Of a stretch of 64,000 nucleotides of DNA, positions 2,850-54,882 are shown in pieces. The translations under genes were made by a program, and so were the position numbers. The stretch's first letter is position 1. Every line of letters begins with the position of its first letter. Source of the DNA: Methanotrichaceae archaeon (GTDB taxonomy: Archaea > Halobacteriota > Methanosarcinia > Methanotrichales > Methanotrichaceae); NCBI GenBank assembly GCA_963748825.1, contig CAVVKN010000023.1, positions 250,248-314,247 on the forward strand. Reading direction: 5' to 3'. The notes below the pieces were generated by a model. It made no database searches. It had not been told where the DNA came from and was given only the letters and a program-made list of their open reading frames with translations.

Positions 2850-3010
2850 AGAGTGGGCTCATCTCGGCATCTTTTGGATATCCTAAAAACTCTGGGCCAA
2901 GATCAGAACATTCCGGTTCAGCGGCGGCGATACGCCATCCGCGGGAACCGGTTGTTAGCTGACCGTTTTTTTTTCGCCGCCCTGTTAGAAGCCCTCGAAG
3001 ACGTTTTATG

Positions 3011-5445
<2,435 letters not shown>

Positions 5446-8582: not shown

Positions 8583-8912
8583 ATGAAAAAGACGAGGCGG
8601 CGCTACGACCGAGCATTCAAGATATCAGTAGTAGCTGAACTTGAGAGTGGCAAACCTCTCGCTCAGATCGCCCGCGAGCATAGCATCCATCCGGCCCTGC
8701 CATCTCGGTGGAGAGAAGAGCTGGCCGAGAATCCCGAAAAAGCATTTAGCGGCAATGGAAATCAGTATAAAGACCAGGCAAGGATTGCAGAACTTGAGAG
8801 GCTGCTAGGCCAAGCTCATGCCGAGATCGATCTTTTAAAAAAAGCCTTCGCCATGACCCAAAAGAAGGTCCGGGAGGAGAGATTAAAACCGACACTGAGG
8901 GACGGTACATGA
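8583..8912 (+). CDS. IS3 transposase OrfA (HTH)
   Basis: RRRYDRAFKISVV...QIAREHSI HTH followed by a RIAELERLLG zipper. Confidence 0.92.
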   Translation: MKKTRRRYDRAFKISVVAELESGKPLAQIAREHSIHPALPSRWREELAENPEKAFSGNGNQYKDQARIAELERLLGQAHAEIDLLKKAFAMTQKKVREERLKPTLRDGT

Positions 8913-9778
8913 CTATCCAGGATGCCCAATCAGGCGGCCTTCAGTTGCCAATATCTCAATCCTGTCAATCACTCGAAGTGAGTCGCAGCGGCTACTACAA
9001 ATGGCGGGTACAACCAAAAAGGGTTCCATATGTGAATATGGATCTGAAGAACCAGATTCAAGAGATCGCTCTGGAATTTACTGGCTATGGTTACAGGAGG
9101 ATGACGGCAGAACTCCGATACAGGGGCTATGTCGTTAACCACAAACGCGTGCTGGACCTGATGCGACAGGATAACCTTCTGTGCCTGAAGAAGAGATTCA
9201 AGCCGATAACGACTGATTCCAGTCATGGACTTCCTGTATATCCAAACCTTCTGAAGAACATAAAGATAACCGGACTGAACCAGGCCTGGGTCTCAGATAT
9301 CACATACGTCCAGTTGCTGCATGAGCACATCTATCTCGCGGTGATCCTGGATCTCTACAGCAGAAAATGCATCGGCTGGGAGCTGAGCAGAAACATTGAC
9401 CACCGACTGGCTATGAATGCTCTGGCTAAGGCATTAGAAAATCGATGGCCAGAAGCTGCTCAAGGACTTGTTCATCATTCTGATCAGGGCGTTCAATACG
9501 CATCCAAATATTATGTAGATTGTCTTAAAAAGCACAACATCCTGGTTAGCATGTCTAGAAAAGGAAATCCATACGATAATGCGTTTGCAGAGAGCTTTAT
9601 CAAAACCCTGAAGGTCGAGGAGGTATATCTGAATGAGTACGGAACGTTTGAAGAGGCTTATAGAAACATATGGCATTTTATCGAGAAAGTTTACAACAGG
9701 AAGAGGCTGCATTCTGCCCTTGGCTATAGATCTCCAGAACAGTTCGAAATGGGGGTTGCTTTAAGTACTGTTGCTTAA
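8909..9778 (+). CDS. IS3 transposase OrfB (DDE)
   Basis: YGYRR, WVSDITY, HHSDQGVQY, DNAFAESF, YNRKRLHSALGY; ATGA overlap with orfA. Confidence 0.95.
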   Translation: MTIQDAQSGGLQLPISQSCQSLEVSRSGYYKWRVQPKRVPYVNMDLKNQIQEIALEFTGYGYRRMTAELRYRGYVVNHKRVLDLMRQDNLLCLKKRFKPITTDSSHGLPVYPNLLKNIKITGLNQAWVSDITYVQLLHEHIYLAVILDLYSRKCIGWELSRNIDHRLAMNALAKALENRWPEAAQGLVHHSDQGVQYASKYYVDCLKKHNILVSMSRKGNPYDNAFAESFIKTLKVEEVYLNEYGTFEEAYRNIWHFIEKVYNRKRLHSALGYRSPEQFEMGVALSTVA

Positions 9779-9801: not shown

Positions 9802-10629
9802 CTAAAGAGAGAACTAGAAGAAGAACGCTTGAAGATAGAGGAACCTGAAAGATACATTCAGATGAAACAGGAAGAGGAGCAATCAAAGAAAGAACAAAAA
9901 GAGAAACAAGAAGAGAATTTAAAAAGGATACGAGCAGAATATTTAAAGAAGAAACAGGAAGAGGAGCGCTTAAAGAACGAACCGGAGCGCCTAAAAAGGG
10001 AACGAGAAGAATGGCGCTTAGAGATAGAACAAACAAAAGAGCGCCTAAAAAGGGAACGAGAAGAATGGCGCTTAAAGAAAGAACAAGAAGAAGAAGAAAA
10101 GCGCTTGAAGATAGAAGAACCTGAAAGATACTTCAAGATGAAACAGGTACTAGAAGAACGCTTGAAGATAGAAGAACCTGAAAGATACTTTAAGCCGAAA
10201 CTGGAAGAGGAGCGCTTAAAGAGGATGCGAGAAGAATATTTAAAAAGGAAACAAGACGAGAATTCAAAGCGGGAACAGGAAGTAGAGCGCTTAAAAAGGA
10301 TGCGAGAAGAATATTTAAAGTGGAAACAAGAAGAGAATTCAAAGCGGGAACAGGAAGTTGAGCGCTTAAAGAGGAATCAAGAAGAGTATTTAATGCGGCA
10401 ACAAGAAGAGAATTTAAAGAAGAAACAGGAAGAAGAGCTAATAAAGGAACAAGAAGAGGAGCGCTTAAAAAAGGAACGAGAAGAAGAGCGCCTGAAGATA
10501 GAGGAACCTGAAAGATACTTCAAGATGAAACAGGAAGATGAGCGCTTAAAGAATGAGCGAGTACGATGTGTCCCCTTTTATAACACGAAAGATGAAGACC
10601 AGATAATGGCGCTTTTTCGGGATGCTTAA
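9802..10629 (+). pseudogene. Low-complexity E/K/R repeat coiled-coil protein, 5' part cut off by the IS
   Basis: Frame is open from the IS boundary; repeats RLKIEEPERYFKMKQ (4 copies) and RLKRMREEYLK; no ATG start. Confidence 0.6.
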
Positions 10630-15187: not shown

Positions 15188-15239
15188 CACGATAGATATG
15201 CAGGGGAAGCGATAAATAATTATTTAGCCTGGCTGCAGA

Positions 15240-15531
15240 ATCGCCTTCCTGATCCTGAAGCGGGACAATTCTGATCTGATCGATTTTTGCCGGGAGAAGG
15301 GACTGATACTGCAGTTCATCGAGCTACTGGACCAGCGCCACCGGGGGCTTTCGGGCGACATCGACGCCATAGAGCGCCGCCTGGCCACGCGGGCGGAGCG
15401 CGTACGCACGCGGGAGATGCACCGGCGCAAGAAATACTTCCTGGATGGAGCAGAGGTTGAGGTGGTGCGGCCCATGGACAACACCGAAGTTTTGCGCCAA
15501 CTGCACGCGCTTACATGTGAGCTCGGACGCC
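15240..15531 (+). pseudogene. C-terminal fragment of a MoaA-type radical SAM enzyme
   Basis: QFIELL...HRRKKYFLDGAEVEVVRPMDNTE, then after a frameshift FCANCTRL-x-VSSD; no N-terminal half. Confidence 0.8.
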
Positions 15532-15614
15532 GGTTCGGCTCAATTATCCCGCTTTTTCAATCCTGGTGGCTCTCAACCGCCAACTACAAATATCTATAAC
15601 GATTATATGAATAG

Positions 15615-16072
15615 TTTGCCGCTTCATGCCATTGAATAGGGTGGCGGGCGTGCCGTGGGCTTAACGTATCTGATGATGCTCTGATGACAAGGGTGTTTGC
15701 TTCACCATGAAGCAACATGCTGCCAGCTCCTAAAGGCTGGATGGGCTTGATCCCTTGGTACAGGAGATGCATGCCGTCGTGGCACTGCATTTGGCTACGG
15801 GCCTGTGAGGCTGATATTTCGGCGGGCTGAAAAAGTTGCGCGCTGTAACAGGCGCAGTAATCCGCCGGATCTCACGCTAATACACGGTCGGGGCATGAAG
15901 CGGCACAAGTCAGAAGTCGAAGGCGAGAGGGCGGGCACGAGGCCCCATGAGAACGGGTTCCCGTAAAACGGACGCTGTGTGAGATTCCAGCGCTTGTGCC
16001 GCCTTCGAAGCCCGGTTTAAAGTCGAGCTTCGGGCAGGGTCAGGCCGTCACTTCGCGGTGATTGGCTCCTCC
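15615..16072 (+). ncRNA. Candidate large structured non-coding RNA of unknown class (strand tentative)
   Basis: Perfect 14-bp long-range stem 15617-15630/15892-15905 and about 10 further stems; no credible ORF; AT-rich TATA-like sequence just upstream. Confidence 0.5.
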
Positions 16073-16609
16073 TAAAAGGACGCTGTGGATTGGCGCTGGC
16101 CCGCCTGGGACTTGATATCTCTTTCTCTTGATGATTTCTCTCTTGGGTGGAGAATGGTCTTTTCTAACTTGAAGCGAAAGCCTTTTATCTCGGCAATTGA
16201 CGTATAGTGTATTGGCGAAAGTCGATGGCTATTTTTCCCTCCTACATCCAATTGACTTTCTCCTCCCTCCTTCTTATCCATCTTTCATGAGATCCTACAG
16301 CATCCTGCCTCCGCTTTCTCAAAGAAAGACTTATAGCCTGACTCGTCCTTATTCTCTCCAGAACGCCAGCCATTAGGAGGAGAGAGGCAATAAGTCGGAG
16401 CTATGGGGCTTGAGGACTGGCCAGGCCCGCAGCTCCATTTATCTCATTCAGCATAATCGATTTTATGGGCTCGCTACTTTTCTGATAGGAATGCACATTA
16501 CACGCACCACGTTATACAATCATTCCAAACATTATTTATAAAACTAATAATTTAAATTTAGGAGCGACCGGATTTTCAGGGCTTATCTCCTGCAAGGAAT
16601 CCGGGCAAC

Positions 16610-17717: not shown

Positions 17718-18220
17718 CATGTAGTCATCTATGAAAATATTTTTTATTGACACTGCTTAGGCACACTTGTATATGCTACCACCCTAGAGCAGACGTCTTA
17801 AATTTAAGTATTTTTATATAATAATTTCCCGAATAAAATAATTTCCAGCCAAGTTTATTTGTATTGGTCTTCTAGAATATTATTTCCGCATGCTAACCAT
17901 GAAACTAGCGCGTAGAACCATACTTATCGAGCAGACTGATGTTGCGCGGCGGATTTTATTTTTGATTTTTGTCGCTATGGGTTGCGATTTTCCGATAACG
18001 GGCAATTGTCGATAAATCATTCCATGGTGTCCTAGAATGATAATTTGCCAGAAGCGAATTTGTTACCATCCAAGCCAAAAGAGAAAATTGGCTGGAAGAT
18101 TTGCAGGTTATACGCACATCTCTTCTTATCGAGACGCTCTTAGATCCATGCACTCACCGGCCAAACCAATAATCAAGCCTCTTTTAGATCCGTGCATTCA
18201 CCGGCCCGAATCCATGCAGA

Positions 18221-18547
18221 TCATACGCCTCCTTCACCAGGGGCCAGCGCCACGGTGGCGTAGATCTCCGTCGTGGACAGCCTCTTTGTGCCCCCACCCG
18301 GCTTCTGGATCATGGGCACCGGCACGCCTGGCATGAGCGCATTCACCACATGGCTGTGGGGCGTGACCTTCCTCCTGGAGAGCTTCTGCCTGGGCGAGAT
18401 CTCCTGGATCCCGACCTCTTCTGCCAGGCGGCCCATGGTCCGGAGCACCGTCTTGGTGCACAGGTGTCCCGAGCTCCGGTCAGGGAAGAGCCACACCTGG
18501 CCGGGCTGCAGGCTCTCCCTGATGACCTGCAGAGTGGTCTGGCTCAC
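18221..18547 (-). pseudogene. Tyrosine recombinase (XerA/C-like) remnant
   Basis: WLFP...KVTPH (LRH deleted) SHVVNAL-x-x-GVPVPMIQK, with frameshifted GHKRLSTTEIYA. Confidence 0.8.
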
Positions 18548-18625
18548 CCGGGCGGCCCCGCTTCACAGATCAGATTGCTAGAACAAGCAAGAAGCATAAT
18601 AATCTTCAAAATATCTACCGGGAAT

Positions 18626-50534: not shown

Positions 50535-50795
50535 TCATATGTTGTATGCGTAATCGTGATGATCAAAGTTAACGAACCAGACTTCTGCGATAATAATCTT
50601 ATAAATGATAACCCAATTTCCGACATGGGCGCTTCGATAACCAGCAAGGTTTTGCGTAAGTGTTTCTCCAATCTCAGGATTTTGCAGGATTTCTCGAATC
50701 TTTTTAAGAGTTCTTTCTTTCAAAATGGCATTCTTTTTGGTCAGGCGCTTAAAATTTTTGTCGAAAAGAGGTGACGATTGCGGCGAATAATTCAT
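50535..50795 (-). CDS. RelE/ParE-family toxin (cassette C')
   Basis: F-x-KNFKRL...NPEIGE-x-L-x-x-NLAGYRSAHV...IIY...DHHD-x-AY. Confidence 0.88.
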   Translation of the reverse strand: MNYSPQSSPLFDKNFKRLTKKNAILKERTLKKIREILQNPEIGETLTQNLAGYRSAHVGNWVIIYKIIIAEVWFVNFDHHDYAYNI

Positions 50796-50801
50796 GTGAA
50801 T

Positions 50802-50963
50802 CTACAGGTTTGAAAGGTGCTCTATGAATTCGTCCGCATTTTTAAAGCGCTTTCCAAGACCTGCCCGAAGCTCTGCATCTCCTTTTAGGGTATTGGCTAC
50901 GATGCGTTCATCATCCTCGATAGACCTGCATTTCGTTTCTGGCTTCTTGATAGTCTTTGCCAT
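50802..50963 (-). CDS. Small antitoxin (cassette C'), 53 aa, below the ORF-track cutoff
   Basis: MAKTIKKPETKCRSIEDDERIVANTLKGDAELRAGLGKRFKNADEFIEHLSNL*, directly upstream of RelE. Confidence 0.8.
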   Translation of the reverse strand: MAKTIKKPETKCRSIEDDERIVANTLKGDAELRAGLGKRFKNADEFIEHLSNL

Positions 50964-54453: not shown

Positions 54454-54714
54454 TCATATGTTGTATGCGTAATCGTGATGATCAAAGTTAACGAACCAGA
54501 CTTCTGCGACAATAATCTTATAAATGATAACCCAATTTCCGACATGGGCGCTTCGATAACCAGCAAGGTTTTGCGTAAGTGTTTCTCCAATCTCAGGATT
54601 TTGCAGGATTTCTCGAATCTTTTTAAGAGTTCTTTCTTTCAAAATGGCATTCTTTTTGGTCAGGCGCTTAAAATTTTTGTCGAAAAGAGGTGACGATTGC
54701 GGCGAATAATTCAT
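54454..54714 (-). CDS. RelE/ParE-family toxin (cassette C)
   Basis: As 50535-50795 with one I/V difference. Confidence 0.88.
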   Translation of the reverse strand: MNYSPQSSPLFDKNFKRLTKKNAILKERTLKKIREILQNPEIGETLTQNLAGYRSAHVGNWVIIYKIIVAEVWFVNFDHHDYAYNI

Positions 54715-54720
54715 GTGAAT

Positions 54721-54882
54721 CTACAGGTTTGAAAGGTGCTCTATGAATTCGTCCGCATTTTTAAAGCGCTTTCCAAGACCTGCCCGAAGCTCTGCATCTC
54801 CTTTTAGGGTATTGGCTACGATGCGTTCATCATCCTCGATAGACCTGCATTTCGTTTCTGGCTTCTTGATAGTCTTTGCCAT
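54721..54882 (-). CDS. Small antitoxin (cassette C)
   Basis: 53 aa, paralogous to the cassette B antitoxin (E-x-DERIVA-x-x-LKG...GL-x-KRF). Confidence 0.8.
   Translation of the reverse strand: MAKTIKKPETKCRSIEDDERIVANTLKGDAELRAGLGKRFKNADEFIEHLSNL

Follow-up and report, generated by a model that had tools for sequence, protein, structure and literature searches.

The window studied in this work (the whole stretch of 64,000 nucleotides, nt, from a Methanotrichaceae archaeon; GenBank assembly GCA_963748825.1, contig CAVVKN010000023.1, positions 250,248 to 314,247 of the forward strand) carries a gene that very probably encodes a real, transcribed and structured RNA of a new family. A previous sequence-only reading of the same DNA had placed a structured non-coding RNA of about 450 nt at 15615-16072. 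The gene proved to be wider, as it includes a promoter block and a longer RNA formed by a 5' domain closed by stem P1 and two modules, M1 and M2 (Table 1).

Table 1. Features at the RNA locus and in its neighbourhood, in positions of the window.
Feature	Position	Strand	Description
Decayed MoaA gene fragment and terminator hairpin	15237-15541	+	tblastn, Pfam and flank alignments; hairpin at 15519-41
Conserved promoter block	15573-15613	+	AT-rich TATA-like boxes; inverted repeat of 7 base pairs (bp)
Putative primary transcript, non-coding RNA of ~511 nt	15614 to ~16124	+	Ends inferred from promoter and T-tract geometry
5' domain inside stem P1	15617-15905	+	P2, multi-helix junction, four hairpins
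Most conserved hairpin	15835-15861	+	Bulged A at 15856; invariant columns
Module M1	15911-16015	+	Cloverleaf-like: closing stem and three hairpins; consensus fold
Module M2	16016-16120	+	Second cloverleaf-like unit; best conserved part of the family; model R1
T-rich tract, presumed archaeal terminator	16120-16144	+	Read from the sequence
Companion block B	16172-16281	+	Second TATA-like box, hairpin 16214-26/16251-63, CU-rich run
Decayed tyrosine integrase	18187-18556	-	About 2 kilobases (kb) downstream of the RNA

To define the family, 59 loci were gathered, of which 51 gave full-length members (433-564 nt) that were aligned with MAFFT. When the copies were aligned with their flanks, conservation began sharply at about 15573, and the similarity extended past the T-rich tract into block B. 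The limits of promoter and transcript given in Table 1 were deduced from these borders, the AT-rich block upstream and the T-tract. The TATA-like sequence that had been noticed upstream lies within this promoter block, which is almost unchanged where the body of the RNA has diverged and also precedes the RNA in another genus. Inside it there is an inverted repeat (ATCTATA ... TATAGAT), perfect in 15 of the 51 members and with one mismatch at most in 34, the right arm having two mismatches in the window copy; by its sequence it resembles an operator. The RNA begins with GUUUG behind its own promoter, and T-rich tails follow M2 in other copies as well. Elsewhere in the genome of the window, G000, the promoter and the first ~15 bases of the RNA are joined to a protein gene whose start resembles a signal peptide (G000:C20:14020-14110), which looks as if a strong promoter had been captured.

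The consensus fold was obtained from 39 close members and then mapped onto all 51, because default RNAalifold on the plain MAFFT alignment of the 51 gave poor structures. It consists of P1 (15617-30/15892-905), P2 (15649-57/15883-90) and short stacked helices that lead to a three-way junction, with hairpins at 15697-715, 15767-90 and 15835-61 and an arm made of 15804-10/15870-76 and 15820-25/15862-67. Over the 51 members, the 150 conserved pairs were paired in 88.9% of cases against 37-41% with the partners slid, a control that is biased toward the fold. Compensatory change was found at 75 of the 150 pairs, a number that none of 500 shuffles reached (45.6 +/- 4.4), and in 243 cells of the alignment (89 +/- 10 in shuffles; 0 of 500). 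In the 5' domain, helices 1-17 show such changes; P1a, which also shows them, is paired in 94.4% of cells. The hairpin at 15835-61 (helix 17) is paired in 96.1%, with compensatory change at 5 of its 10 pairs, and is present in the other subtype of the family too; it holds five of the eight invariant positions of the alignment, and a sixth, A15832, lies just 5' of it.

The folding energy of the + strand was -194.5 kcal/mol, against -177.3 +/- 6.4 for 100 dinucleotide shuffles, none of which was as low (z = -2.69). For the - strand z was -1.74, with 5 of 100 shuffles equal or better. Moreover, G.U is the most frequent pair at 19 of the 150 positions over the 51 members, which fits the + strand only. 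Both observations indicated that the RNA is encoded on the + strand. Folding energy, covariation and the search for a known Rfam family, which gave no credible match in the region (see below), had been named by the sequence-only reading as checks of its candidate, and its observation of a structured RNA holds.

Most of the helices proposed in that reading were recovered. Its perfect 14-bp stem was located by the repeat finder and is P1 of the consensus, and the nested stems caaggg/cccttg, ttgcttca/tgaagcaa, atgca-tgcc/ggca-tgcat, gtgag/ctcac, cggcgg/ccgccg and tgcgc/gcgca are all in the 39-member fold, as ccagc/gctgg is in part only. The repeat finder also returned an 8-bp hairpin (15697-704/15708-15), the 9-bp stem tcgaaggcg/cgccttcga (15917-25/16000-08) and a 10-bp helix (15900-09/15993-16002). 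The 9-bp stem closes the second domain of the window copy as had been said, but other subtypes use a shifted register. The 10-bp helix, considered an alternative to both closing stems, exists in the window copy, but the family retains only 6 bp of it, which show no compensatory change. Pairings that exclude one another are possible in the window copy, though covariation lends them no support. The T-loop-like hairpin cgctg...cagcg of the second domain belongs to the consensus, and of the two hairpins said to follow that domain gccgtcac/gtgattggc belongs to it as well, whereas cgaagc/gcttcg is absent. Finally, the tandem CUGAUGA, compared in that reading with box C/D elements, is real in the window copy but is not a feature of the family, its first copy being found in 7 and its second in 23 of the 51 members.

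Modules M1 and M2 both have closing stems of 12 bp. In M1, the third hairpin (15973-92) has a T-loop-like loop of 7 nt closed by a G-C pair; at least 23 of the 51 members have U in the first and A in the fifth place of this loop. The stem of the hairpin, CGCUG/CAGCG, changes to CACUG/CAGUG and to CACCG/CGGUG in a compensatory manner. M1 is similar to a tRNA-like unit (tRNA, transfer RNA) in its closing stem, its three hairpins, its 7-nt T-loop (U1...A5) and the G-C closure. A covariance model of M2 only (R1; 103 positions, 38 pairs) scored 110.3 bits on M2 of the window. Considered alone, M2 was paired in 91.6% of cells (35-46% with partners slid) and 16 of its pairs showed compensatory change, against 7.8 +/- 1.8 in shuffles (1 of 500). 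The loop of its third hairpin is most commonly a self-complementary GAUC (18 of 51 members), a palindrome that the window copy lacks. M1 is a diverged duplicate of M2 and matched the M2 model weakly, with 18.2 bits in the window copy and 23-26 bits in three other copies.

Block B begins with AAGUCGA, like M1 and M2, and its CU-rich run is similar to an anti-Shine-Dalgarno sequence. It stands behind the RNA in most copies of the genus of the window and alone at G000:C2:105055-105411, and contigs of one run (X6, described below) overlie it. Possibly it is a small RNA gene in its own right, or else a third module that has degenerated.

The absence of a credible open reading frame (ORF), already claimed from the sequence, was borne out by several observations. 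Only short ORFs overlap the region, with 2-10 stops in each frame of the window copy, 421 of 527 indel events in the family alignment were not multiples of three, and no 3-base periodicity of variation was found there. No match to the region was obtained with any of the 4227 families of Rfam 15 at gathering thresholds, and at E <= 10 the sole hit was an ALIL match of 12.8 bits, which was dismissed as chance. At six loci of the second subtype, the same search at E <= 10 gave only one true and unrelated tRNA gene nearby. The failure to match RNase P, signal recognition particle (SRP), tRNA or group II intron models, reported before, was thus reproduced. RNase P RNA (RF00373) was not detected in the window either at gathering thresholds or at E <= 10, nor archaeal SRP RNA (RF01857) in the region; the true RNAs of this genome are at G000:C9:33744-34048 (216 bits) and G000:C23:164670-164984 (193.5 bits), respectively, and their promoters look unlike that of the family. 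ARAGORN predicted no tRNA or transfer-messenger RNA (tmRNA) gene in 15400-16600, where Rfam gave no tRNA match either. The region matched no Rfam intron family at E <= 10, its 5' end being GUUUG instead of the GUGYG of group II introns, and no box C/D small RNA (sRNA) family. Ribozyme families (E <= 10) and OLE, ROOL, GOLLD, HEARO and other large RNAs of Rfam were found neither in the region nor at the six second-subtype loci. Likewise, searches of a limited collection of literature brought up no description of this RNA.

In relation to its distribution, BLAST with 15560-16120 detected three full copies in G000 (100, 93 and 84% identity) as well as fragments. The other genomes of the genus all had matches (24 of 24), and 16 genomes of other genera of the class had none. 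Twenty-nine exact-pattern matches came from records of Methanothrix, Methanotrichaceae or uncultured Methanosarcinales metagenome-assembled genomes. With R1, 79 of 101 Methanotrichaceae genomes gave matches (12 of 16 genera, 1-12 per genome), among them 52 of 54 in the genus of the window. In a class-wide draw, 47 of 69 genomes of the Methanotrichaceae and none of 71 from four other families were positive; as the genome sets are samples and many genomes are incomplete, failure to find the RNA is not equivalent to its absence. Among the genomes searched, the family is restricted to the Methanotrichaceae.

A second subtype, of ~430-490 nt, has the same promoter, P1, bulged-A hairpin, M1 and M2, and differs in the interior of the 5' domain. 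It is present in the genus of the window and is the form found at six loci of another genus. Fourteen sequences of it, from the two genera, share this architecture (145 pairs, 88.1% paired, 46 with compensatory change). The form of the window seems to be an expanded subtype specific to its lineage. G000 also contains paralogues that have the promoter but are shorter or diverged (C23:149428-149870, C6:117491-117815 and C16 near 8800), together with an M2 adjoining a B-like block (C4:43937-44041) and, at C6:30991-31091 on the - strand, a lone M2 of 79 bits with R1 placed right after the stop codon of a protein ORF, the break falling exactly at the M1/M2 linker. At locus L008 (G012:C5) two RNA copies on the same strand (1509-2053 and 2952-3492) are separated by 1.4 kb, in which the opposite strand has an ORF of a MazF/PemK-like toxin (Pfam E = 3.2e-4, below the cut-off).

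Cover in RNA libraries was also considered. According to the run index, 20 runs contain some of the stretch and 14 of these are recorded as RNA. Four runs from four studies were examined; the word shares of the other 19 of the 23 runs listed (0.23-0.30) are no evidence and were not used. In three of the four (X1, X2 and X3, sediment and wetland RNA libraries from three studies) 5468, 4528 and 706 contigs, respectively, fell on 15629-16098. The summed word depth in X1 and X2, trusted as cover and not as absolute values, was 0.5-2.8 million at 15629-15910 (maxima 2.4-2.8 million), 0.2-0.6 million at 15911-16004, 0.04-0.14 million at 16005-16051 and 0.001-0.016 million at 16052-16098. Hardly any cover appeared in X1-X3 at or before 15581 or from 16146 onwards, and little over the promoter bin; this drop was not used as evidence because ends cannot be read from contigs, the flanks differ between strains and short variant tips were likely trimmed in assembly. 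One X1 contig (depth 68, shorter side of 35 letters) runs from 16091 through 33 letters of the 3' tail of a variant copy into 15614, and so links the two ends predicted from promoter and terminator; a circular RNA, an artefact of ligation or DNA copies in tandem could each account for it. Splicing was rejected for the contigs that skip from 15693 to 15751, as the skips equal natural deletion variants of the family.

With regard to interpretation, we favour, with reasonable but limited confidence, the view that the gene is intact and that its product is a large and stable non-coding RNA with a defined structure, from a family not described before, which would work as a scaffold with a 3' cassette. 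A dedicated, conserved promoter with a palindromic, operator-like element would drive the transcript, whose body would be the ~290-nt 5' domain closed by P1. The invariant bulged-A hairpin would be the likeliest protein-binding or active centre, and the tandem tRNA-like M1 and M2 with the oligo-T tract would make up the 3' cassette. Most likely the RNA would act in trans, as an RNA or ribonucleoprotein scaffold or as a decoy, and the cassette would serve in formation, protection or processing of the 3' end, as tRNA-like 3' modules do in some long RNAs. As a specific mechanism, this scaffold with a cassette is tentative: we infer the exact ends, the action in trans, the binding of protein and the role of M1 and M2. 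The stepwise drop in depth at about the module borders is a hint that fits processing of the cassette, without proving it. A bolder version, which we consider rather unlikely, is a new large archaeal RNA class working as an RNA machine or RNA-only assembly; a regulated promoter would drive a precursor whose P1-closed domain, catalytic or a scaffold, would be matured by cleavage at the two tRNA-like modules, and part of the RNA may be circularised.

Several points weigh against this interpretation. The fold was derived from the same alignment in which the pairs were counted, and it is for this reason that the slid control leans toward the fold. The fall in summed depth from the 5' domain to M2 is about 1000-fold, and processing, decay or assembly effects fit it equally well. 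Depth multiplied by bin width comes near the entire size of runs X1 and X2, so that the absolute depths are untrustworthy while the cover itself is trusted. In the fourth run, X6, which was depleted of ribosomal RNA (rRNA), cover was low (2-72), flat and extended into the flanks, and may therefore be DNA. Contigs, moreover, cannot show ends, strand, level or which copy is expressed, so anything beyond cover in the RNA libraries of three studies is a hint. The distribution of R1 matches is patchy: one genus has them in 9 of 16 genomes, and four others gave none (0 of 7, 0 of 3, 0 of 2, 0 of 1), hence the family is not essential. Finally, five copies besides that of the window have an integrase or ParA gene nearby, which favours the alternative of a mobile-element RNA.

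The neighbourhood of the copies was also compared. The commonest context in the genus is a DUF1699 gene (Pfam 3.2e-55), preceded by MoaA in several loci, on the same strand as the RNA and ending mostly 51-79 nt before its promoter (202 and 267 nt in two rows). Of 86 rows, 21 show this context, as do 17 of the 51 whose upstream sequence reaches 500 nt or more; the rows are not independent of each other. In intact loci, a terminator hairpin ends the DUF1699 gene just before the RNA promoter, and the intact MoaA-DUF1699-RNA arrangement of G000 is on contig C17. The window keeps, without a DUF1699 gene, the terminator hairpin and a MoaA fragment (15237-15528, 77% identity over 87 residues by tblastn; Radical_SAM and Mob_synth_C in Pfam for its relatives). 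As only these two elements are left, its locus is a decayed duplicate of the arrangement. The decayed island of the sequence-only reading is correct for the MoaA fragment upstream and the integrase fragment downstream, but not for the RNA gene itself, which is intact, conserved and covered in RNA libraries and is no relic. In the other genus the neighbours of the RNA loci are varied and ordinary; few flank pairs matched in the synteny of the second subtype, the flanks being short. As regards other parts of the window, a putative two-ORF IS3-type transposase (8583-9778) is followed by an ORF of 266 amino acids (aa) consisting of repeats rich in Glu, Lys and Arg (9829-10629), both named by eye. 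On the - strand, 50700-50900 and 54620-54820, ~3.9 kb apart, are near-identical and seemingly a duplicated gene end with downstream sequence, and a tRNA gene truncated by the window start occupies 1-69 (Rfam, 52.5 bits).

Five other explanations were weighed, which we rank as RNA of integrative elements, self-assembling particle, attachment site, ribozyme, intron or guide RNA, and cis-acting leader. According to the first, which is unlikely although the best of the five, the RNA would belong to Methanothrix proviruses or integrative plasmids and serve in their maintenance, copy control or counter-defence, and the chromosomal copies would be remains of decay. A predicted viral contig (L112, from IMG/VR) does carry an intact copy, with ParA/ParB-like genes on one side and a tyrosine integrase on the other; this integrase is an intact relative (194 aa) of the decayed one in the window. 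Integrase homologues are found near copies L064, L083, L087 and L092 and ParA near L085 and L087, and the RNA exists in several copies, at times only a few kb from one another, with a patchy presence within a genus. However, of 23 pattern-matched stretches in the viral collection one was a true copy and 22 failed the model, and the plasmid collection gave no match. In addition, the six loci of the other genus lie among ordinary chromosomal genes, two pairs sharing flanks between genomes, and the commonest locus of the genus is the fixed MoaA-DUF1699-RNA arrangement just described, with its 21 of 86 and 17 of 51 rows.

It is quite improbable that the RNA forms an RNA-only self-assembling particle and is thereby the archaeal equivalent of ROOL, GOLLD and OLE, which build multimeric cages or membrane complexes. 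Its large and intricate fold, lineage restriction and very deep cover in RNA libraries would agree with this, as would the repeated modules and the GAUC loops of M2 in 18 of 51 members; the Rfam families of OLE, ROOL and GOLLD nevertheless gave no match, and the loop of the window copy is not a GAUC palindrome. A third possibility, compatible with any function of the RNA, is that its tRNA-like 3' end is an attachment site for integrases, as in tRNA and tmRNA genes. This would explain the islands and the orphan pieces of M2, such as the lone M2 after a stop codon (C6) and that beside a B-like block (C4), and in the window remnants of an integrase do follow the RNA at a distance of 2 kb. The 3' end of the RNA is not repeated directly elsewhere in the window, where only chance 13-15-mers inside genes appeared, and the L112 integrase is on the promoter side and not on the 3' side, so we hold this to be very unlikely.

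The sequence-only reading was right about a large folded RNA, as the conserved fold indicates, but its suggestions of a self-cleaving ribozyme, a remnant of a group II intron or a guide RNA of a transposon are no less doubtful than the attachment site. Nothing favours them other than size and dense structure, the alternative 10-bp helix of the window copy and the neighbouring mobile DNA. Against them, no Rfam family of these kinds matched at E <= 10, the RNA has its own promoter and terminator and is not inside a host gene, the alternative helix does not covary, and no transposase or nuclease gene, such as the TnpB, IscB or IS110 genes that accompany omega and bridge RNAs, recurs in the ORF lists of 25 loci (part of the flanking ORFs being searched against Pfam). 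Finally, a cis-acting leader or riboswitch for block B or genes beyond it, suggested by the position of B behind most copies of the genus and by a phosphoglycerate-mutase-like ORF after B in L012 (named by eye from its translation), is hardly credible, since a T-rich terminator and a second promoter-like box separate RNA and B, the downstream genes vary between copies and B is missing in the other genus.

Returning to the favoured reading of a scaffold with a 3' cassette, the RNA was compared with known systems. OLE, ROOL and GOLLD are large 'ornate' non-coding RNAs of bacteria and phages; like them, the Methanothrix RNA exceeds 400 nt, has many covarying helices and is lineage-restricted, and high expression, occasional links to mobile DNA and an unknown function at the time of discovery complete the parallel. 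Unlike them, it is archaeal, has its own palindromic promoter and tandem tRNA-like 3' modules, and forms a diversified family of several copies per genome. MALAT1 and MEN-beta, with mascRNA, are eukaryotic long RNAs in which RNase P and RNase Z cleave a tRNA-like 3' module. The likeness consists in a long structured RNA followed by a cloverleaf-like module, with steps of contig depth at about the module borders in the Methanothrix RNA; in the latter, however, there are two modules with 12-bp closing stems and cleavage is only conjectured, and the Rfam mascRNA model did not match it, its sole match being a true tRNA gene nearby. Archaeal RNase P and SRP RNAs, ~300 nt long, resemble it in being abundant, stable and structured, in having promoters of their own and in the terminal stem between their 5' and 3' regions, but it matches neither model and the promoters look different. 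With Y RNA and YrlA, partners of Ro, it would share stability, a tRNA-like module with a T-loop-like hairpin and several paralogues per genome, while it is much larger and no Ro protein (TROVE, PF05731) was found in G000, which is 94.9% complete. As for the K-loop of archaeal box C/D sRNAs, the window copy has UGAUGA and CUGA motifs 4 nt apart, but these motifs, in 7 and 23 of the 51 members, lie inside helices and junctions of a larger fold.

Large structured RNAs of archaea beyond rRNA, RNase P RNA and SRP RNA are, to our knowledge, almost unknown. An RNA of 500 nt, multi-copy, family-wide, deeply covered and with ~150 conserved pairs would be a new object for RNA biology, as regards its structure, its partners, its processing by tRNA enzymes and its possible circularisation. 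Much of the methane that living organisms release in wetlands, rice fields, sediments and digesters is commonly ascribed to archaea of the Methanothrix type, which count among its main producers, and this RNA is possibly among their most abundant non-ribosomal RNAs in nature. It could be used as a marker of Methanothrix activity in metatranscriptomes, and the family would account for sequence that is now unannotated or called short hypothetical genes.

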